Assembly (NCBI GenBank): GCA_025336725.1
Contig: GCA_025336725.1_3647.1
DNA from: Escherichia coli
GTDB lineage: Bacteria > Pseudomonadota > Gammaproteobacteria > Enterobacterales > Enterobacteriaceae
Length of the DNA: 64,000 nt
Strand: one strand, 5' to 3'
This document shows positions 27,677-37,344 of this stretch, piece after piece; the stretch's first letter is position 1; each line of letters begins with the position of its first letter. Under the pieces are notes generated by a model, which was given only the letters and a program-made list of their open reading frames with translations, did no database searches and was not told the origin of the DNA. Made by a program: the position numbers and the translations under genes.

Positions 27677-28231
27677 GAAAGAAAGCTGTCAAAGCTCCCG
27701 TTCATAGCGGGTGGCTAAAAGATTCTAAGGACATAGCCAACTTTCGGAAAGAATTGTCAGAAGAGCAGGATGGCCTTGATCCGATCTTGTGCGAGCCACT
27801 TCGTAAGCCTTGTTTAGATCATGATCATCTGACTGGTCGTTGCAGAGGTGTTTTGTCCCAATGCACTAATACCTTTGAAAGATATGTGCTTAAATACTGG
27901 ATGAAATACTGTAGCGAGTATCAGGTGCAGTTTATCAGAGGCGTTGCGCCGGATGGCTGACTATCTGGAGAAAGACTACAGCGACTTCCCGCTCCACAAA
28001 AACTACAGAGACGATATGACAAAGTTCTTGAGGAGATGCTCTAAAGCCACAATTATTGCACGAGCAGAATCGGATCTCGATCTTGTCATTAATCCAGAGT
28101 ACACTAAGCATGAGGCTATTGAAGCCTACATGCAGGAGTTCATAAAGAAAACTGAGGAGAGAGACTTCTATGGGGATGAAAAAGGTATTCAATCCTTGCG
28201 ATTCAGTTCTGATCAGGATGAAATACCGTAA
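27622..28231 (+). CDS. Endonuclease VII-like resolvase, apparently frameshifted
   Basis: CLDHDHLTGRCRGVL...CTN resembles the T4 gp49 core; C-terminal part (ADYLEKDY...) lies in the next frame from ~27950. Confidence 0.5.
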
Positions 28232-28391
28232 CTGGAAAGGTGTTGTTGCAGATCGCCGCGTTACTGAACCTAATTTATGGTTTGGTTCTACAGAGTATCA
28301 TAAAGAAGAGCAGTGGTTGATGCATGCCTTTGATGTAGACAAGGGCGAATATCGTGACTTCGCTTTAAAAGACATTCTTCAGTTTTACTAA
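28170..28391 (+). CDS. Hypothetical protein
   Basis: 73-aa track ORF. Confidence 0.3.
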   Translation: MGMKKVFNPCDSVLIRMKYRNWKGVVADRRVTEPNLWFGSTEYHKEEQWLMHAFDVDKGEYRDFALKDILQFY

Positions 28392-28403
28392 GGAATCTTA
28401 ACG

Positions 28404-29387
28404 ATGATGACAAAGTTAACTCTTGAGCAAATTTTAACACTAAAGCAACAGGGATACACTAATAGACAAATTGCTCGTGAATTTTTAGGCCGTGAGTCAC
28501 GTGAGAGCTGGATCCGACTACAGCTTAAACGTGCACAAGAGAATATGTCAGAGATTGTAGGAGAAGCAACGGAGCGCTTCCTTGAAGAGCACAAAGGCGC
28601 TAAAGTTTGGGTGTATGATACAGAGACATCCCCAACAAACGGCTGGTTCTTTGGGCACTATAAGACCAACATTCAAACCTGTGGTATTGAAGTTATGCCT
28701 TATATGCTAACTTTCGCAGGTAAGTGGTTAGACAGCCCTAGTGTGGTTGACTGCGCTCTTCCCGATTACAAAATGTGGAATGAGGATATTCACAATGATC
28801 TCGAATTGATTCAGGATTTGTGGTATTATCTGGATAAATGTGATGTCGCAGTAGCCCACAATTCAGGTTTTGACTGTGGGTGGGCCAACCAACGATTTGC
28901 ATTTCACGGGTTGCCGCCAACAAGCCCATACAAAGAGGTTGACACCCTCAAAATGATCAAGAAGGCATTCCGTTTGAATGCAAACACTTTGGAGTATGCA
29001 TGCAAATACTTCCAACTTGCCAGACAGAAACTGATTGACCACACATTTGAAATGTGGATCAAGTGTGTTCACGGTGATCTTGAGGCGTTTAAACAGATGC
29101 GGGAGTACAATGTTGGTGATATCCTATCTCTGGAAGGCCTGTATTTGCTGGCTCGTCCGTTTGCTAAGCAGCACCCCAACATGTCATTGTACTACCAGGA
29201 CGAGGAGCCAAAAGTTCGTTGCCCACGCTGTGGTGGAGAACACCTTCACGAGGAAGAAGCTTTGGCGTATACTCAATTGAGTGCATTTAAAACATACCGC
29301 TGCGAAGGTTGTGGATCTGTTGTTCGTGATCGTAACAACATCCGTACCAGAGAAGAAATGAAAAACACCCTGATTCAGATAGTCTAA
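28404..29387 (+). CDS. DnaQ-like 3'-5' exonuclease with N-terminal HTH
   Basis: Exo motifs VYDTETS (DxE), HNSGFDCGW, YNVGDILSLEGLY; N-terminal TNRQIAREF helix-turn-helix; C-terminal CxxC...CxxC. Confidence 0.65.
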   Translation: MMTKLTLEQILTLKQQGYTNRQIAREFLGRESRESWIRLQLKRAQENMSEIVGEATERFLEEHKGAKVWVYDTETSPTNGWFFGHYKTNIQTCGIEVMPYMLTFAGKWLDSPSVVDCALPDYKMWNEDIHNDLELIQDLWYYLDKCDVAVAHNSGFDCGWANQRFAFHGLPPTSPYKEVDTLKMIKKAFRLNANTLEYACKYFQLARQKLIDHTFEMWIKCVHGDLEAFKQMREYNVGDILSLEGLYLLARPFAKQHPNMSLYYQDEEPKVRCPRCGGEHLHEEEALAYTQLSAFKTYRCEGCGSVVRDRNNIRTREEMKNTLIQIV

Positions 29388-29396
29388 CAATTATAG

Positions 29397-29430
29397 GGAG
29401 GCTTGCGCCTCCCTTTTCATTTTGGAGGCA
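29397..29430 (+). terminator. Intrinsic terminator after exonuclease gene
   Basis: GGGAGGC-ttgc-GCCTCCC hairpin followed by TTTTCATTTT. Confidence 0.55.
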
Positions 29431-29432
29431 CT

Positions 29433-30251
29433 TTGAGCAAGAAAGAGTCCAACGACAAATATTACACAAACCCTGAGTATGCAGAATACCTTGTTGGTAA
29501 AGTAAAAGATAAGTATGGGAATTGTGCATACGTTGAGCCTTCTGCTGGAAGGGGTTCTTTTTCAAAACTATTTTCAGAGATACTGTCGTACGATTTAGTA
29601 CCAGATCCTGAATTTGAAGGACCAACACCGTGCATTCAGGCAAACTTCTTGGAGGTGTATCCCAAGGCAGATGTCTTCATAGGTAACCCACCATTTGGCA
29701 AGAATTCATCCTTAGCTTGCAAATTCTTTAACCATTGTGCATCATTGCTGGAGATTGGAGGAGCTATAGCCTTCATCTTGCCACGGACATTTGAAAAAAT
29801 ATTTTTTGCAAACAAACTTAACCTGTCGATGCACATTGTCTACAGCGAAAGGTGCCCTAAGAACTCGTTTTTACTTAATGGCAAACCTTATGACGTGCCA
29901 TGTGTTTTCCAAATTTGGGAGAAAAAGGCGTGCAATAGGGATCCTGTAGAGGTTGGAGAGAATAAGTTATTTTCTTTTAGCACTCCAGATGACTACGACT
30001 TCTGTGTAAGACGTGTTGGGTATAATGCTGGAAAAGTATTGGAGGAGGATGACCCAAAATCTGAAGAATCAACATATTTCATAAAATCTTTAGTTGACGG
30101 TGTTGACAGAGTGTTTGCTGAATGCTATTCTTCCTTTCAAGAAGAAGCAGGTAAGACTGCCGGAATGAAGAGTATAGGTAAGAAAGAACTACAATACATT
30201 TTGGAGACTAGGTATGATCAAAAGCATAGACTTGACCAAAGAACTTACTGA
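29433..30251 (+). CDS. N6-adenine DNA methyltransferase (putative)
   Basis: Motif I-like VEPSAGRGSF and motif IV IGNPPFG; start moved to TTG after GGAGG because the track N-terminus overlaps the terminator hairpin. Confidence 0.6.
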   Translation: MSKKESNDKYYTNPEYAEYLVGKVKDKYGNCAYVEPSAGRGSFSKLFSEILSYDLVPDPEFEGPTPCIQANFLEVYPKADVFIGNPPFGKNSSLACKFFNHCASLLEIGGAIAFILPRTFEKIFFANKLNLSMHIVYSERCPKNSFLLNGKPYDVPCVFQIWEKKACNRDPVEVGENKLFSFSTPDDYDFCVRRVGYNAGKVLEEDDPKSEESTYFIKSLVDGVDRVFAECYSSFQEEAGKTAGMKSIGKKELQYILETRYDQKHRLDQRTY

Positions 30252-30672
30252 TGCAAAAGCTTTTGGTGAGACAGCGGTACAAAGGGGGCAGGCGATGGGA
30301 CTGGCACTACCTTTCGTCTTAAAAGAGCACTTTACAGATTTTCAACTTATCAAGGGTGATAAGGGAATGCTTATTCTGGAGCATAAGTTGAGTAAGAAAC
30401 GCTACAAAGTTGTTTTTAATTCTAAAGCCCCAACAAAACTAGGATTCAGAACTTACAATCTCAACCCATCCTACACCAAGGGTGTTGGAAGGGTAGAACA
30501 ACAACATTTCAGTGCCAGAGCTTCTTTAGCCCCTTTGATGCTAAATTTCTCAGGGGTGGCTTTAGGATACCTTGATAAGAAAAGAGTTCTTCATGTTCGT
30601 TTCACAGACTTTGTAACGCTTTTAGCTAACAACGAGGTTGATGAAAAGGGACGTGTAAAAACAAACTTCTAA
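30214..30672 (+). CDS. Hypothetical protein
   Basis: 152-aa track ORF. Confidence 0.3.
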   Translation: MIKSIDLTKELTDAKAFGETAVQRGQAMGLALPFVLKEHFTDFQLIKGDKGMLILEHKLSKKRYKVVFNSKAPTKLGFRTYNLNPSYTKGVGRVEQQHFSARASLAPLMLNFSGVALGYLDKKRVLHVRFTDFVTLLANNEVDEKGRVKTNF

Positions 30673-30687
30673 TAACGCATAGTATGA

Positions 30688-30891
30688 TTGGAGGCCACAA
30701 TGACACTAAAGTTAACAATTCCAGACAGCTTTTCAGAAAACTTTATCCCAGAAATGATGGATAAGATGCGATCATTGCTTGATCAGATCGAGGAAGCTGT
30801 TTGGGAAGACGATGCTGTAGTGGCTAACGAGCTGGTAGATAAGTGTAAAAGTATTATTGATGCAGTTGAAGAATACCACGGAGGTTTTTGA
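30688..30891 (+). CDS. Hypothetical acidic protein
   Basis: 67-aa track ORF. Confidence 0.3.
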   Translation: MEATMTLKLTIPDSFSENFIPEMMDKMRSLLDQIEEAVWEDDAVVANELVDKCKSIIDAVEEYHGGF

Positions 30892-32459
30892 TGGATATTA
30901 TTGTTCTTAATGCACCACCGTGCTGCGTCCCGAGTGGTACAGAGTTCCTCACCAAATCCGGGTGGAAAAGTATAGAAGATTTTGATAATGATTTCGTGGC
31001 GGTGTGCGATAAATTTGGGGCAATGCATTGGGAGATACCTGAATTTATTGAAGGCAATACTCCAGTTTTTGAAAAGGGCGTTTTTGCCACATGGTCTATG
31101 GTTTTAACACCTAACCACAAAGTTCTGTATGAAAACAGAAGAGGATCAAGAATTGCTAGAGAGTGGTCAGAGATAACTTTGGAATCCAAAACTGGCTACG
31201 ATGGATATATACCTGCCACCTTCCATCAAGAGTCTGGAGAGGATGTGGACGATTTTGACCTGCTTAGAGTTGCAATCCTAGCAGACTCTTCTGAGGTTAA
31301 AAACCGAGAAGGTGTGTTAATGTTTAATATTAAAAAGGACCGTAAAAAGGAGAGGCTGCGATACTTATTTAAAAGAACTGGAGTAACCTTTTCCGAAAAA
31401 GAGTTTGAGAGTATGCCTGGTTACACCCGTTTTTTCATTCACAACAGCCCTTTCATGAAGAAAGATGGTATACCTAGCCACTGGTGGAATCTCTCTTCCA
31501 AGGCCAGTGAAAAACTACTAAACGAGATGCTGAAATGGGATGGGTGCGAGAAATACAAATCTTTCTCAACCACTTCTAAAGAGGAGGCAGATCTATTTCA
31601 GCTTTTAGCAGCAAAATGTGGGAGAAAGGCCAAAATTGAAATAGATAACTACAAAAGGGAGTGTGATGAAGAGAGCAGAACTCGTAGCGTTTGCTATGCG
31701 GTAAAAATTCTAAAGTCAGACTCTTATTCGATGCGTAAAAGTGGCGGATATGATAATCCCGATAAAGCTTTTCAACCTTACAAAGAGGAGTTACCTGGGG
31801 GTAAGTGTTACTGCTTTACCACAACAACCGGATTTTGGGTGGCAAGACAAAACGGTATGGTGTTTTTAACAGGTAACAGTGGAAAAGACCATATTGCAGA
31901 TCTCTTGTTGGAAGCTATTCCTAACTCACACCACCGTGAGGTTAAGGAGATGCTATTCAGTGTGGCAATTAAGGCAGCTGGTGTAACTCCTCAGCTCTGG
32001 AATGCACTTTATGACCGCCACTACAAAGAAGAGCCTTGCCCTTTCTTAATGATAGACGGCAAGCATGTTTCTCCGCGAGAATGGATGATCCATTGTAGTG
32101 AAAATCTGATTAAACCTATCTTTGGTGAAGATGCTTTCGGTAAAGCCGCAGTCGCATCTTTGAAGAAAGATTTCCCTGAAGGTAAAGGGGTTATTGTTTA
32201 CTCCGATGGTGGATTCAAAGAGGAGCTGGCATGCCTTAGTGAGTACGCATACAGCACAGGTGGAGATCTGTTGTTGTTCCGTATTCACCGTGTCGGATAT
32301 GACTGGGGAAATGATTCCAGAACCTATCTAAGTCTGGAAAAGAACGGAATAAAAGGGATTGAGTTTGATGTTGTAAACCCTGAAGGTGCACCTTGGGAAT
32401 GTGCATCGGAGATTGTGTGCAAGTATATTGATGCTAAAGAGGCACAAGAAGAATGTTAA
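30891..32459 (+). CDS. dNMP kinase (T4 gp1-like) interrupted by an intein
   Basis: Extein MDIIVLNAPPC + SGKDHIADLL... gives a P-loop of the T4 gp1 type (RSGKDT); extein C-terminus resembles dNMP kinase. Confidence 0.6.
   Translation: MDIIVLNAPPCCVPSGTEFLTKSGWKSIEDFDNDFVAVCDKFGAMHWEIPEFIEGNTPVFEKGVFATWSMVLTPNHKVLYENRRGSRIAREWSEITLESKTGYDGYIPATFHQESGEDVDDFDLLRVAILADSSEVKNREGVLMFNIKKDRKKERLRYLFKRTGVTFSEKEFESMPGYTRFFIHNSPFMKKDGIPSHWWNLSSKASEKLLNEMLKWDGCEKYKSFSTTSKEEADLFQLLAAKCGRKAKIEIDNYKRECDEESRTRSVCYAVKILKSDSYSMRKSGGYDNPDKAFQPYKEELPGGKCYCFTTTTGFWVARQNGMVFLTGNSGKDHIADLLLEAIPNSHHREVKEMLFSVAIKAAGVTPQLWNALYDRHYKEEPCPFLMIDGKHVSPREWMIHCSENLIKPIFGEDAFGKAAVASLKKDFPEGKGVIVYSDGGFKEELACLSEYAYSTGGDLLLFRIHRVGYDWGNDSRTYLSLEKNGIKGIEFDVVNPEGAPWECASEIVCKYIDAKEAQEEC
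30924..31877 (+). mobile_element. Intein (318 aa) with homing-endonuclease-like insert
   Basis: Block A CVPSGTEF, block B TPNH (TxxH), C-terminal FLTGN followed by +1 Ser; central LAGLIDADG-like LLRVAILADSSE. Confidence 0.6.
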
Positions 32460-33046
32460 TCGGAATTGATGTAGATTTGACACTGGTAGATTCAGGAACA
32501 GCATGGTGGGAGTGGTTGGAGCGTTTGTATGGTCCAGCCAGTAAGACAGTCGCTAAACCTTCTAACGGACTGATGTATTACGATCTGTCAAAGTATTGGC
32601 CTGATCGCCCCAAAGAAAACATCATAGGGCCTTTTGATTTTTGGAGTGACCCGTTCCTCTACGACTTTCTTAAGCCTGAAGAGGGGGCTATTGAGGTTAT
32701 GAAAGATTTGGTGGCTCGTGGTCACAAGCTTGCATTTATCTCGGTATGCAAGAAAGGTCACCTTGCATCTAAATCAAGGTTCTTAAAGCGTTGGACCAGT
32801 GATTTTATGGATCTTGACGATCACACCCAGGGCCACGGCTTCTACGCCACACATTTCAAAGGAAATGTGGCTGTAGATGTTATAATTGACGACAGGCATG
32901 AATACCTAAACCAATTCGCTTCACGACCTGAAGTTATTAAAATCCTAAAAGATACGCCTTATGAGCAATTCGAGGAGTTAAAGGTCAGTGTTGACTATAC
33001 CGCTAATAGCTGGTATAAAATAGGAAAGTTTTTAGAAGGTATTTGA
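32453..33046 (+). CDS. HAD-family 5'(3')-deoxyribonucleotidase-like hydrolase
   Basis: N-terminal IGIDVDLTLVDS (DxD nucleophile motif). Confidence 0.55.
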   Translation: MLIGIDVDLTLVDSGTAWWEWLERLYGPASKTVAKPSNGLMYYDLSKYWPDRPKENIIGPFDFWSDPFLYDFLKPEEGAIEVMKDLVARGHKLAFISVCKKGHLASKSRFLKRWTSDFMDLDDHTQGHGFYATHFKGNVAVDVIIDDRHEYLNQFASRPEVIKILKDTPYEQFEELKVSVDYTANSWYKIGKFLEGI

Positions 33047-33047
33047 A

Positions 33048-33248
33048 ATGGGCAGATGTTCTAAAGGTGGCGATCCTGTAGTCAGATACGGTGACTGGCT
33101 AGAGGTGTATGATCTGGGAGGTAAGCTGGTGTATGCCTCCAGGATCACCCAAGACATGTGCTCCGATATGTTCAACAGATACCTTGCATTTAAGGCCAAC
33201 ATAAACCCAGACGAAATTTCCAAAATTAAAACAAGGAGAGCTAAATAA
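33048..33248 (+). CDS. Hypothetical protein
   Basis: 66-aa track ORF. Confidence 0.3.
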   Translation: MGRCSKGGDPVVRYGDWLEVYDLGGKLVYASRITQDMCSDMFNRYLAFKANINPDEISKIKTRRAK

Positions 33249-34231
33249 TGCTAAAACTGTGCACTGCAAAGATCATTGCTGACAGCATTTCCGAGAAAGG
33301 TAAGCGCATCACCACTTTTGAGCTAGAGTATCCTCGAATTATTCACTCAGAGCTTATGACGCATCGAGTATTCAGCCGAAACGCCATGTCTTCCCGTGCA
33401 GTTCCTGTCGGCAAGATGCTGCAACAGATTGTGGAGAATCCTGCAATGCCAGTTCGCTTCGGTGCAAATAAGCGAGGGATGGAAGATGGTGGGGAACACG
33501 ATCAAAAGATCCGTGTAGAGTACACTGACATGGAGTTAACTCCTGAAGAATTTTGGAAAGAAGCTGCAAAAAACGCCGCTTGGCATGCAGAGAAGTTCGC
33601 ACTTGCTGGTTACCATAAGCAAGTATGTAACCGCTTAGTGGAGCCTTTTCAACGCATGAAAACAGTTGTAACAAGCACCGAGTGGAATAATTTTTTCCAC
33701 CTCCGTTGCTGGCACGATGCGGATCCTACGATTCAGATGTTGGCTAATTGTATGTGGGAAGCTCTTGTGAATAGCACCCCTGAGATCCTTAAACCAGGTC
33801 AATGGCACACCCCATATGTAGAGCACGTTTATTTGGACGGAGAGTTTAACTACGCTGTACGTGACACAGAAGGAAAGCTCTGCATCCTCGATACTAAAGA
33901 AGCTCTGTCTATCAGTGCTAGTTGCTGTGCACAAGTATCTTATCGAAATATTGACAGCACGTTTGAAAAGGCAGACAGTGTGGCTAAAAAATTGATTGGT
34001 GGGGATCGTATTCATGCAAGCCCTTACGAGCACCAGGCAACACCTATGGATCACGATAACGCAATGGAACGTTTAAACTACTATCTATCTTCATGTGAAA
34101 TCACACAAGACAGCTGTGTTTGGCAGGAAGGTGTAACCCATCAAGACCGTGATGGTAAATTCTGGTCTGCCAACTTTTGTGGGTGGGTTCAGCACAGACA
34201 ACTGCTTAATAACCACTTCGTGAAAGGTTAA
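33248..34231 (+). CDS. thyX: Flavin-dependent thymidylate synthase ThyX
   Basis: ThyX-like signature ELMTHRVFSRNAMSSRA (HR...SxR). Confidence 0.65.
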   Translation: MLKLCTAKIIADSISEKGKRITTFELEYPRIIHSELMTHRVFSRNAMSSRAVPVGKMLQQIVENPAMPVRFGANKRGMEDGGEHDQKIRVEYTDMELTPEEFWKEAAKNAAWHAEKFALAGYHKQVCNRLVEPFQRMKTVVTSTEWNNFFHLRCWHDADPTIQMLANCMWEALVNSTPEILKPGQWHTPYVEHVYLDGEFNYAVRDTEGKLCILDTKEALSISASCCAQVSYRNIDSTFEKADSVAKKLIGGDRIHASPYEHQATPMDHDNAMERLNYYLSSCEITQDSCVWQEGVTHQDRDGKFWSANFCGWVQHRQLLNNHFVKG

Positions 34232-34290
34232 TCCTATCACAGCGATAGGTAACTTCTGTGTTGACTAATACTATCAGATAATCTATAATA

Positions 34291-34791
34291 ATGGCTCACT
34301 TTGTTGGTGAGCCAGAAATGGAGACAGATATGAGTAATGTTATGATTCCTAAAAAGACATTTATTTCAGTTACTTTAGATTTTCTATCTACCGTTCCCGG
34401 GTTTAACGTTCGCACACGAAACGGTCTCCGAGCTGCACTCTTTGCCATAGGGTTTGATTTAAAAAGTATTGATGTTCTTCGTGGAAAAAACGTTCGATGC
34501 AGAAATAAGCCAACACATTATCGAAAGACAGATGTATTTGCTGGTGTCATGCGTGCAGACTTTAGATACCCACAAATGTATAACGGTGTAGATATTTTAG
34601 ATGTAGATAAAGCACCCGGTGAGGCAATGCTTGTTCAAGATCTTCCGTATGATATCCCTGTAGAGGATCGTGTTAATGTAAGAAAGTATACAAAACAATC
34701 TGAAAAGGCTGAAGATATTCATATTGTTGATGAACCTTTCAATTTTGAAGATCTGCATCGCCTGGAAAAATTATTCGGTATTGAAAGCTAA
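34291..34791 (+). CDS. Hypothetical protein
   Basis: 166-aa track ORF. Confidence 0.3.
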   Translation: MAHFVGEPEMETDMSNVMIPKKTFISVTLDFLSTVPGFNVRTRNGLRAALFAIGFDLKSIDVLRGKNVRCRNKPTHYRKTDVFAGVMRADFRYPQMYNGVDILDVDKAPGEAMLVQDLPYDIPVEDRVNVRKYTKQSEKAEDIHIVDEPFNFEDLHRLEKLFGIES

Positions 34792-35032
34792 GGTGGTGAA
34801 GATGAGTCATAACTCCAAGTGGAAGGATCTTGGTTTTGCAAGTCGGGCAGAATATGTTGGTTGGCTTTGGTTCAACGGTCTGACAAACGATATTAAAATG
34901 TATGATGATGTTTATTATGACGAGTATACAGGTAAAATTATAAATATCTCTGTAGAAGAGGATACCTTTACTCGGCAAGATACTGATACCTGCCTTGATA
35001 AATACGTGGATGAAGTGGAGGAAGCAAATTGA
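34724..35032 (+). CDS. Hypothetical protein
   Basis: Track ORF; likely start is the internal Met (MSHNSKWKDL...) around 34801. Confidence 0.3.
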   Translation: MLMNLSILKICIAWKNYSVLKAKVVKMSHNSKWKDLGFASRAEYVGWLWFNGLTNDIKMYDDVYYDEYTGKIINISVEEDTFTRQDTDTCLDKYVDEVEEAN

Positions 35033-37344
35033 TCACCAAAGTAATTAAAAGTAACGGATGTGAAGTTGAATTCGATCCAGAACGTTTAAATAAGGCAGCT
35101 ATTTTCGGTGACGACGGTAACGGCAATTGGTCACATATTGCAATGGATGCATACAAACGTCTGTATGATGGATGCACAACCAAAGAAGTTAACCAAGCTA
35201 TTATAGATTCATGTGTTAGCCGTAAAGACGAAGCACATTCCCGTATGGCTGGTCGTGTTCTTATTGGTCAGATCTATAAAGAGGCTTTTGGAGGGTTTAC
35301 AAAGATCCCTTCCTTACCATCATTCTACAATACCATGGTTGAGAAAGGGTATTGGGAGGATATGGGTTATAGCTTTACTGAGTTAAACACTTTAAACACT
35401 GTTATTGATCACAGTAAAGATCTCGGTTATGGCTATGCAGTCCTTAAACAGTTTCGTGACAAATACGGGATCAAGGATACTCTTAAAGACACCCTGTTTG
35501 AATCTCCCCAGATGATGTTTATGGGGATAGCAATGGCTGTAATGAAGAATATGCCTAAAGAACGCCGTATTAACGATGTTGTAAAATTATACACTTATCT
35601 GTCAGACTTAAAGATCAATGCCCCGACACCGTACTTAAACGGTCTACGCACAGGCAAGACAGGGTATGCATCTTGTTGCGTAATAAAAGCTGACGATACA
35701 GCAAAGTCTATTGGTGTGGCACGTGAAGTTGCTTACACAATGACGGTTAACCAAGCAGGCATTGGCTACTATTTATCGTCAAGATCTGCAGGTGATGGTG
35801 TTCGTGGTAACACGATTAAACATATGGGAAAGCTCCCATATTATCGTGGTATTGATGCTGGGGTTAAGGAGAATAGACAACAATCCCGTGGTGGTTCGGC
35901 AACAGTGTCATTCCTTGCACTGGATCCTCAGATTGATGAGCTAATCCGTTTGAGAAACCCTATGACTGTTGCTTCAAAAAGAATCAACACTATGGATTAT
36001 TCCATAGGTATTAATAGGTCGTTTATCAACCGTGTGGCTAAAAATTTAGATTGGATGCTTGTTTCTTATAAGCACGCACCTCAGCTGCATGAAGGCATCT
36101 TCACCATGTCTATGGAGGAGTTTGATGCAGAGGTTGATCGGATCGCTAAAGATGACAGTATTCCTAAAACATGGATCCGTGCTAGAGATCTTGCTGCTGA
36201 ACTTATCACGCAGCGTACTGAGGTAGGAAGACTGTATGTATACTGGACAGACGAGATGAATAGGCATACACCTTTTAAAGATGTAATCTATTCAAGCAAC
36301 CTGTGTGCAGAGATAGCCCTTCCGACAAAAGGCTATTCAGATATGCGTAATATCTTCAAGTATGATGCTGATGATGGTGAGGTTGCATTGTGCTTCCTAT
36401 CATCTCTTGTAGCTGGGAGGGTTACCCCAGAGGAGTATGAGGACGTTGCATACTACACGGTGCTTATGATTGACAATGTTATGGAAATCATGACATATCC
36501 GTATGAAAATATGGAGAGCACTGTTAAAAAACGCAGATCCATCGGGGTTGGCCTTACCAATGTTGCACATTTTATTGCCAGCCACAAGGTTACTTACGGA
36601 TCTCCTGAAAGTAAACAGCTTGTTCACGATCTTGCAGAACTCCACAGCTACAGCTTGCATAAGGCAAGTTTACGGTTGGCAAAAGAGCGTGGTGTCTGCG
36701 AGTGGATGCATAAAACAAAATATCCAGAAGGTTGGTTACCAATCGACACCTATAACAAAGAGGTCGATAGCGTGGTGAAAGATCCTTCTCTTAAACAGGA
36801 TTGGGAAGGGTTACGTAAAGAAATAATTGAAAATGGTGGGCTACGTAATAGCGTTCTTGAAGCATATATGCCTAATGAAAGCTCTTCGCTGGCAACAAAC
36901 ACCACTAACGGGGTTTATCCTGTCCGTGAGCACATTATCTTTAAAAAGTCGCCACAAGGGCAGGTGCTGTTTATCGTTCCTGACTATGATGAGTTGAAAG
37001 AGTATTACACTTCGGCTTGGGACGTTGATACTAACGACATGATCGATATGTATGCTGTGATTCAAAAATTCACAGGTCAGGCAATCAGCGCGGATTTATA
37101 CATCGACTACACCAAGTTGAAAGATGGTAAAATTTCAATGAAGGAGCAGCTGGGTTACCTTATCCGTGCTACTAAATTCGGGATGAAGACATGGTATTAT
37201 TTAAACTCCAGGGTTGGTGCTGGTGACTCCTTGGCAGAGGAACTTCATGCCAAGAAACAGGCTGAAGATGAAACCAGAAAGAACTATCCTTTGATTGCAG
37301 ATAGTTCAGTTGAAGATCCGTATTGCGAAAGCTGTGCACTATAA
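35029..37344 (+). CDS. nrdA: Ribonucleotide reductase class Ia large subunit
   Basis: 771 aa, NrdA-typical length, followed by NrdB-like and glutaredoxin genes. Confidence 0.7.
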   Translation: MITKVIKSNGCEVEFDPERLNKAAIFGDDGNGNWSHIAMDAYKRLYDGCTTKEVNQAIIDSCVSRKDEAHSRMAGRVLIGQIYKEAFGGFTKIPSLPSFYNTMVEKGYWEDMGYSFTELNTLNTVIDHSKDLGYGYAVLKQFRDKYGIKDTLKDTLFESPQMMFMGIAMAVMKNMPKERRINDVVKLYTYLSDLKINAPTPYLNGLRTGKTGYASCCVIKADDTAKSIGVAREVAYTMTVNQAGIGYYLSSRSAGDGVRGNTIKHMGKLPYYRGIDAGVKENRQQSRGGSATVSFLALDPQIDELIRLRNPMTVASKRINTMDYSIGINRSFINRVAKNLDWMLVSYKHAPQLHEGIFTMSMEEFDAEVDRIAKDDSIPKTWIRARDLAAELITQRTEVGRLYVYWTDEMNRHTPFKDVIYSSNLCAEIALPTKGYSDMRNIFKYDADDGEVALCFLSSLVAGRVTPEEYEDVAYYTVLMIDNVMEIMTYPYENMESTVKKRRSIGVGLTNVAHFIASHKVTYGSPESKQLVHDLAELHSYSLHKASLRLAKERGVCEWMHKTKYPEGWLPIDTYNKEVDSVVKDPSLKQDWEGLRKEIIENGGLRNSVLEAYMPNESSSLATNTTNGVYPVREHIIFKKSPQGQVLFIVPDYDELKEYYTSAWDVDTNDMIDMYAVIQKFTGQAISADLYIDYTKLKDGKISMKEQLGYLIRATKFGMKTWYYLNSRVGAGDSLAEELHAKKQAEDETRKNYPLIADSSVEDPYCESCAL

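Follow-up and report, generated by a model that had tools for sequence, protein, structure and literature searches.

The stretch of DNA considered here, hereafter the window, comprises 64,000 nucleotides of Escherichia coli assembly GCA_025336725.1 and belongs to the genome of an rV5-like E. coli myovirus (Vequintavirus), with the 8 kb around the gene of interest 96–97% identical to more than 100 such genomes. A gene for a small nucleotide kinase is interrupted there, in its ATP-binding P-loop (Walker A motif), by a long in-frame insert (Table 1). We assign this insert, positions 30924–31877, to an intein with a nested LAGLIDADG endonuclease that lies in the Walker A motif of a deoxynucleoside monophosphate (dNMP) kinase resembling gp1 of phage T4, and place the probability of this reading at about 0.85. 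Protein splicing, DNA cleavage and the substrate of the kinase are predictions drawn from sequence and structural models.

A single open reading frame (ORF) runs uninterrupted from a TTG at 30888 or an ATG at 30891 through 32459 on the forward strand. The ATG appears the more likely start codon; it overlaps the stop codon of the upstream ORF (TGA, 30889–30891), and kinase homologues are annotated as starting at the same methionine. The 522-residue product reads, in order, MDIIVLNAPPC-CVPSGTEF...MVLTPNH...LLRVAILADSS...LLNEMLKWDG...YCFTTTTGFWVARQNGMVFLTGN-SGKDHIADLL..., and the motifs on which the original prediction of an intein had been built (CVPSGTEF, TPNH, a LAGLIDADG-like segment and FLTGN followed by Ser) are all present where it had placed them. 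The boundaries of the insert follow from intein-free alleles. The JohannBauhin allele (204 residues, 'putative P-loop NTPase') aligns to precursor residues 1–10 and 330–522, with one Ser where the window precursor has Cys11 and 318 extra residues, and alignment with intein-free alleles gives an extra segment of exactly 318 codons (30924–31877), as expected from the proposal that removal of some 318 residues joins NAPPC to SGKDHIADLL. An alternative intein start at Cys11 was dropped, because it would shorten Walker A by one residue and does not match the 318-codon difference in length from the empty alleles. The insertion falls between Walker A positions 4 and 5 (APPC/SGKD, slashes here and below marking junctions), 11 residues from the N-terminus, and conceptual splicing restores an N-terminal Walker A, MDIIVLNAPPCSGKD, that is collinear with intein-free NAPPSSGKD and with GPPGSGKD homologues. 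Restoration of a P-loop had been foreseen and holds; it differs in detail, as intein-free alleles read NAPP-S-SGKD, with Ser (AGC) at position −1, and the intein-bearing alleles have Cys (TGC) there.

Table 1. Features of the kinase gene and its predicted intein in the window, with positions counted from the first nucleotide of the window
Feature	Position	Strand	Basis or remark
Shine-Dalgarno-like GGAGG	30880..30884	+	6 nucleotides 5' of ATG; read directly from the sequence
Precursor ORF, 522 residues plus stop; predicted nucleotide kinase split by intein	30891..32459	+	97.5% identical to JEP1_188
N-extein MDIIVLNAPPC, with strand beta-1 and the N-terminal half of Walker A	30891..30923	+	Alignment with intein-free alleles
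Upstream substitution cluster	30912..30923	+	Window-specific at −12, −9, −3 and −2 nucleotides; background about 1 per 100 nucleotides
Predicted intein, 318 residues, Cys1 to Asn318 (954 nucleotides; precursor Cys12 to Asn329)	30924..31877	+	Presence/absence polymorphism, homologues, model
Block A, Cys1 nucleophile	30924..30965	+	CVPSGTEFLTKSGW; C1, T6, E7 and W14 invariant in A3
Block B MVLTPNH (Thr62 and His65, intein numbering)	31098..31118	+	T-x-x-H; aligned by profile to AceL NrdHF (6zgq)
LAGLIDADG motif 1 LLRVAILADSS, predicted catalytic Asp121	31260..31292	+	A120 invariant in A3
Conserved basic segment IKKDRKKERL of endonuclease domain	31329..31358	+	K141 invariant, R144 nearly so
LAGLIDADG motif 2 LLNEMLKWDG, predicted catalytic Asp206	31515..31544	+	E201, W205 and D206 invariant in A3
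Blocks F and G	31800..31877	+	GKCYCFTTTTGFWVARQNGMVFLTGN; Cys297 F:4, Thr316 G:5, Gly317 G:6, Asn318 G:7
C-extein, 193 residues, from Ser+1 of SGKD (second half of Walker A) through kinase body	31878..32456	+	
Downstream substitution cluster	31878..31892	+	Synonymous at +6, +9, +12 and +15, all common to JEP1

The strongest evidence for a discrete, removable element is its presence or absence among otherwise near-identical phages. In a phage collection, 116 records match the 8-kb region in two pieces, at about 88% coverage, without the 954-nucleotide segment. Homologues collinear through the region without a gap had been named in advance as grounds for abandoning the intein; the opposite was found, with about 116 homologues lacking precisely this segment. 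JEP1 (MT740314) is the only related vequintavirus in the collection that carries the insert, at 98.7% amino acid identity, and its precursor is annotated 'hypothetical protein'. Some 20 GenBank records named 'Campylobacter phage' (MG0656xx; C2, C5, C7, C9, C11, D1, A112b and others) are also about 97% identical to window positions 28000–36000; these are probably E. coli phages co-isolated in Campylobacter enrichment, with hosts possibly mis-assigned.

Conservation within the insert was assessed with a 14-sequence alignment and profile of the intein family (A3), in which the window intein is included, and with residue counts over 163 family domains in 156 retrieved proteins, the denominators being the domains that cover the position in question. 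For block A, where the family consensus is CVDxDTEFLTxxGW, the window intein aligns with CVPSGTEFLTKSGW; 158 of 161 domains have Cys1 and all 161 have the block B His (B:10; His65). Residue 121 of the first LAGLIDADG motif is acidic in every A3 member (Asp in the window intein, Glu in the metagenomic proteins P0002 and P0003), and a Lys of the segment IKKDRKKERL is predicted to bind DNA or to belong to the active site. Towards the C-terminal end, Tyr296, Cys297 and Phe298 of block F, along with Arg308, Thr316 and Asn318, are invariant in A3 and Gly317 is nearly so. Across the family, all 160 domains that cover F:4 have Cys there; of the 157 that cover block G, 143 have Thr at G:5 (10 have Ser), 151 have Gly at G:6 and every one has Asn at G:7. 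Position B:12 is Val67 in the window intein and mainly Val, Ile or Met in the family (Trp in 1 of 161). The intein closes with FLTGN/S at 31863–31880, Asn318 being followed by Ser+1 of SGKD.

Searches with the insert place it in a broad family of phage inteins, an outcome well outside coincidence. A tblastn search with the insert alone returned 164 further phage records in which all 318 residues align, at 28–31% identity, and these homologues sit inside RecD-like, PhoH-like, RtcB and DnaB-like genes. The five that were translated all split their host, with ...G/CVDADTEFLT...F.TGN/[ST]GK[ST] at the P-loop, RtcB being the exception (GVDIG/C...TGN/CGM); in all aligned homologues the boundaries are in frame and run from Cys to Asn followed by Ser, Thr or Cys. 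When the whole 522-residue precursor was searched against 1.84 billion representatives, 3707 relatives passed E ≤ 1e-3, of which 1081 also passed E ≤ 1e-10; both counts mix relatives of the intein with those of the kinase. Among the best 150, the majority match through the intein part, in varied host proteins of 400–1500 residues. PHROGs aligned precursor residues 10–338 with a PhoH family (E = 1e-22), whose profile evidently contains an intein. The view that inteins favour P-loops is borne out for this element, which belongs to a large phage intein family sitting in P-loops. The family also reaches other sites. P0007 (641 residues) is a ribonucleotide reductase (RNR) small subunit (PF00268) with a more distant family intein (REE/CFIEGTEVLT...FIAGN/CLHF), and this site, together with the RtcB site in Corynebacterium phage Lederberg, indicates that the lineage is not confined to P-loops. 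Only one copy of the family is present in the window; the A3 profile matches the window ORF at E = 4e-113, a score that is not independent, as the profile includes the window intein. Base composition leaves no foreign mark on the intein (GC 0.40–0.42, versus 0.39–0.45 in the flanks).

The predicted fold agrees with these searches. Searched as a single sequence, the intein found no match in the PDB sequences; the A3 profile matched the solved intein AceL NrdHF (6zgq) at E = 1.8e-7. An AlphaFold2 model of the intein built on A3 reached a mean predicted local distance difference test score (pLDDT) of 85.6 and a predicted template modelling score (pTM) of 0.86, and its best PDB matches in Foldseek were TliVMA (E = 6.5e-12), PI-SceI and PI-PfuI, all with probability 1.00. 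Its central domain matches the endonucleases I-DmoI and I-Tsp061I (E ~1e-4, target-normalised template modelling score ~0.55), in agreement with a pseudo-dimeric alpha-beta-beta-alpha-beta-beta-alpha fold. Taken together, sequence and model suggest a bona fide full-length intein, consisting of a HINT domain and a monomeric, two-motif LAGLIDADG homing endonuclease.

Several described inteins resemble it in part. The intein in the recombination directionality factor (RDF)/phosphoesterase gp51 of mycobacteriophage Bethlehem is likewise a phage intein of about 317 residues with a nested LAGLIDADG endonuclease (PMC5050341), and shares Cys1, Cys F:4 (VWCL), the L-T-G-N/S junction and a penultimate Gly; it differs in its host, a metallophosphoesterase without a P-loop site, and in block A (CSWTNARAVT). 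The Bethlehem intein splices completely in a reporter, replacement of its penultimate Gly by His slows splicing (Kelley et al. 2016, PMC5050341), and its endonuclease is toxic (PMC5050341). Among solved structures, the best sequence match is AceL NrdHF-1-1 (6zgq), from a contig judged by its authors to be probably phage-derived (Hoffmann et al. 2020, PMC7891396). This intein also has Cys F:4 and Thr G:5 and lacks Trp B:12 and His at F:13 and G:6 (PMC7891396); in contrast to the window intein it is naturally split, starts with Ala, has no nested LAGLIDADG domain, interrupts an RNR subunit, and has a proven class 3 mechanism, whereas the window intein has Cys1. The inteins in P-loops of phage ATPases (mycobacteriophage TerL1-a/b, and the PhoH, DnaB-like and RecD-like cases found here) belong to the same family, lie just before Walker A [ST]GK and, like the window intein, fall where the host gene is most conserved, though their hosts are helicases, terminases or PhoH rather than a small nucleotide kinase entered 11 residues from its N-terminus. 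In PI-SceI, PI-PfuI and TliVMA a LAGLIDADG endonuclease domain likewise divides the HINT domain, giving the same overall architecture by fold; identity is only 11–15%, however, their block-F Asp and penultimate His are canonical, and they bear additional regions for DNA recognition, the window intein being the smaller.

Some observations weigh against the assignment to a LAGLIDADG intein. Scanning the precursor, and the intein by itself, with Pfam and NCBIfam returned no intein or LAGLIDADG match: neither Hint/Intein_splicing (Pfam) nor TIGR01443/TIGR01445 (NCBIfam) matched the insert even at E ≤ 1, and Pfam LAGLIDADG_1/2/3 did not match it either. The original prediction had proposed precisely such Hint and LAGLIDADG profiles as a check; these failed, and the custom family profile does reach the solved intein 6zgq. 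The first LAGLIDADG motif ends in Ser rather than Gly, and pairwise similarity to the Bethlehem intein is weak (E = 7e-4). The penultimate His and the block-F His (F:13) are both missing and the block-F Asp is replaced by Cys, so that the chemistry would be non-canonical. A penultimate His (G:6) and a block-F Asp or His are typical of canonical class 1 inteins and are not obligatory; the Bethlehem RDF intein, which can splice, and AceL NrdHF deviate from this pattern in the same way.

If the insert is an intein, translation would give a 522-residue precursor with a split Walker A, presumably inactive and unable to bind ATP. A thioester would link the N-extein to Cys1 or the block-F Cys297, its acyl group would pass on to Ser+1, Asn318 would cyclise, and an O-to-N shift would complete the release of a 204-residue kinase with an intact P-loop (...NAPPCSGKD...) and a free 318-residue endonuclease. 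On co-infection, this endonuclease would cut the intein-less P-loop of a relative (...CCACCCAGC^AGTGGTAAGGAT...), and recombinational repair from the filled allele would copy the intein plus a short flanking extein tract.

Which of the two Cys residues acts first bears on the class of the intein. Class 3 is defined by absence of the position-1 nucleophile, usually with Trp at B:12 (PMC7891396, PMC5050341). The window intein shares Cys F:4 and Thr G:5 with that class; it has Cys1 and lacks Trp at B:12, and a filing under class 3 was rejected on these two grounds. Formally, it is a class 1 intein with class-3-like blocks F and G. The same intein could nonetheless use class-3-type or relay chemistry, in which Cys297 is the obligate nucleophile and forms a branched thioester, with Cys1 dispensable or serving as the first relay station. 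This is a tentative reading, held at clearly less than even odds. It draws on the universal Cys at F:4, the prevalent Thr at G:5 and the lack of His at F:13 or G:6; on AceL NrdHF, the closest solved sequence relative, whose class 3 mechanism is proven and which has the same His gaps and a non-Trp B:12; and on family members that have lost Cys1 yet keep Cys F:4, TGN and the +1 nucleophile. Against it stand the retention of Cys1 in nearly all family domains, which argues for its use, the definition of class 3 itself (Val occupies B:12 here), and the placing of the related Bethlehem RDF intein in class 1 (PMC5050341); the three Cys1-less members, moreover, could be decaying inteins.

The Cys1-less domains comprise P0034 (residues 41–361) and P0069 (residues 124–442), both with Pro1 and in terminase-like hosts, and P0095 (residues 13–327), with Gly1 and in a small kinase-like host; all three retain T-G-N and Ser or Cys at +1. 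By the published definition they would count as class 3 inteins within a Cys1 family, and their sequences hint that the block-F Cys can serve as nucleophile in this lineage. It is conceivable, though doubtful, that the family as a whole is a large, mostly phage-borne class 1/class 3 hybrid lineage in which Cys297 is the true nucleophile, either through a relay from Cys1 to Cys F:4 to Ser+1 or as class 3 chemistry with a redundant Cys1; the size of such a lineage is known only through the precursor search, whose 1081 relatives at E ≤ 1e-10 mix intein and kinase.

Returning to the LAGLIDADG intein as preferred here, its host is probably a dNMP kinase-like nucleotide kinase, the substrate being predicted from sequence and model. 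PHROG 139, 'deoxynucleoside monophosphate kinase', covers the whole spliced protein (E = 4.9e-43) and matches residues 329–517 of the precursor. When the C-extein alone was modelled with AlphaFold2 (pLDDT 84), two fold searches run independently both ranked T4 gp1 dNMP kinase (1DEK) first; 160 residues were aligned, and the Foldseek probability was 0.92. Profile searches with the spliced kinase returned nothing but spurious matches (Argonaute, MORN) from Pfam and the PDB sequences, and the assignment accordingly rests on PHROG and fold similarity rather than on Pfam or PDB sequence matches. The gene neighbourhood is one of nucleotide metabolism: the kinase stop codon overlaps the start (ATGTTAA) of a 5'(3')-deoxyribonucleotidase/HAD gene (32453–33046, +), followed by ThyX (33248–34231, +) and the class I RNR large subunit (35029–37344, +) in a compact module. 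T4 gp1 has a comparable neighbourhood and an N-terminal ...SGKD P-loop; it is only 16% identical to the host, with no match at sequence level, and at the Walker B/substrate loop, where the kinase family carries the motif SDGGF, it has PDTR. This motif difference, the lack of a Pfam family and of a PDB sequence match, and the wording of several depositors, who write only 'P-loop NTPase', would fit a P-loop kinase of other specificity, acting on nucleoside monophosphates, polynucleotides or a small molecule. Such a specificity is unlikely in view of the PHROG 139 match, the first rank of 1DEK in both fold searches, and the deoxyribonucleotidase overlap with ThyX and RNR nearby; the original likening of the host to T4 gp1 stands as probable.

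Patterns of substitution bear on whether the element is still functional. Between the window and JEP1 the intein differs by 20 synonymous and 4 non-synonymous substitutions, a ratio of non-synonymous to synonymous rates (dN/dS, omega) of 0.048. Against the metagenomic protein P0001, from a distant Vequintavirinae-like contig with about 68–72% nucleotide identity to vequintaviruses, omega is 0.08 overall, with 0.077 in the N-terminal HINT part, 0.088 in the endonuclease and 0.013 in the C-terminal HINT part; the C-extein omega is 0.03. Synonymous divergence (dS) from JEP1 is 0.11 for the intein versus 0.58 for the exteins, and identity to P0001 is 83% in the intein versus 71% in the extein; judged by these values, the intein is younger than its exteins.

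The DNA around the insertion site carries a further signature. A substitution scan found 70 positions in about 7 kb at which the window differs from each of the four empty alleles sampled, and 8 of them lie within −12 to +15 nucleotides of the insertion site (binomial P ~5e-10; Table 1). Seven of these eight are synonymous, and one replaces Ser (AGC) by Cys (TGC) at codon −1; two more sites shared by the window and JEP1 lie at +78 and +117. In JEP1, about 180 nucleotides directly 3' of the intein are 83–86% identical to the empty alleles, before identity returns to 98%, and the window shares the intein-proximal sites of this divergent tract. The cluster is likely a co-conversion or target-immunity tract. 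The JEP1 C-extein (L001 3988–4566, compared with window 31878–32459) is also a mosaic relative to all other vequintaviruses, with blocks of 81–88% identity at 0–200 and 400–600 nucleotides past the intein, 95–98% identity between them, and a different kinase C-terminus (...DAKEG); this pattern suggests more than one recombination event.

Inteins at the same kinase site extend beyond the vequintaviruses. At least four metagenomic kinases (P0001, P0002, P0003 and P0009) have an intein at the same P-loop position, clustering with the window intein in a neighbour-joining tree; the junctions are GPPG/C...TGN/SGKD in P0002 and P0003 and NKPR/C...TGN/SGKG in P0009. The N-extein of P0001 is identical to that of the window at 11 of 11 residues, whereas its intein-free sister P0008 matches P0001 at 7 of 11 N-extein residues and at 90% over the rest of the protein, a contrast that suggests co-conversion of N-extein and intein when the element passed from one lineage to another. 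The same site in P0022, a protein with T4-gp1-like motifs, holds an intein (SGKAR/C...TGN/CGKD) that falls elsewhere in the tree, suggesting an independent invasion; with it, at least five metagenomic kinases are interrupted at this position. On this sequence evidence the kinase P-loop is a long-established intein site, and from the signatures of selection, substitution clustering, age and phylogeny we infer that the intein is active and mobile.

It is very unlikely that the intein is instead degenerate and non-splicing, with the kinase dead or dispensable and the insert a decaying relic. Such decay would sit well with the non-canonical blocks F and G and the missing Pfam match, and the kinase may be non-essential, as insert-bearing JEP1 grows well (PMC8425383). 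All family-invariant residues are intact, however, dN/dS stays at 0.05–0.09 over the HINT and endonuclease parts, the low C-extein omega is unexpected for a gene permanently killed by an unspliced insert, and three independent alleles (the window, JEP1 and P0001) are free of frameshifts and stops. That the insert is no intein at all but a free-standing homing endonuclease gene fused in frame, or a group I/II intron through which the reading frame happens to continue, can be set aside as most improbable, despite the abundance of HNH and intron-borne endonucleases in phages of this group (PMC7344957): an Rfam search of 30500–32600 found no intron even at E ≤ 1, on which ground the intron was rejected, HINT blocks A/B and F/G flank the endonuclease domain, the whole model superposes on intein-endonuclease structures, and all homologues have in-frame Cys...Asn/Ser boundaries.

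Two of the metagenomic contigs hold further disrupted genes. The contig with P0002 (L003, Logan SRR25395476, 1–17551) belongs to a phage and is saturated with selfish elements besides the kinase intein: an HNH gene interrupts DNA polymerase A, two ORFs make up the RNR small subunit, a LAGLIDADG_3 domain lies in the RNR large subunit, and ThyX, at 658 residues about twice the normal length, probably contains an intein. On the contig with P0001 (L014, Logan SRR10499703, 9250–12261), NrdD appears as four consecutive ORFs with gaps of about 200–400 nucleotides, and is probably broken up by introns or other intervening elements.

LAGLIDADG inteins in P-loops of phage genes for replication, packaging and nucleotide metabolism are well known. 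Within the same subfamily, certreviruses have inteins in a helicase and an RNR (PMC7344957). The searchable full-text literature, which was covered in part and without InBase, yielded no account of an intein either in a dNMP kinase or in rV5-like phages, and the JEP1 paper does not mention the insert (PMC8425383). The kinase gene is therefore probably, not certainly, undescribed as an intein host, given this partial coverage. The original prediction had known of no intein in a dNMP kinase; this holds for the literature searched, although the sequence itself is already public, unannotated, in JEP1 and in metagenomes. The new part thus appears to be the host gene, the element itself being of an ordinary kind.

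With this assignment, a nucleotide-salvage kinase joins the list of intein host proteins, and the site lends support to the rule that the part of a gene in which inteins settle is its most conserved and catalytically indispensable one. The failure of Pfam-A and NCBIfam to see either the intein or its LAGLIDADG domain exposes a sensitivity gap in automated phage annotation, and since curated profiles miss the element and depositors write 'hypothetical protein', the A3 family profile could improve such annotation. A small, fast, His-less phage intein with Ser at +1 could also serve as a tool in protein engineering. The combination of Cys1 with an invariant Cys F:4 and T-G-N, and no assisting His, bears on whether class 3 inteins arose from class 1 or were ancestral to it; if the hybrid reading is true, Cys−1, Cys1 and Cys297 would all lie at the active site, and splicing, and hence the supply of deoxynucleoside triphosphates to the phage, could be conditional on redox state. 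Finally, some 116 empty and 2 filled alleles in near-identical, easily cultured E. coli phages amount to a clean natural experiment, in which homing, the length of co-conversion tracts and the fitness cost of the intein would be directly testable by mixed infection.

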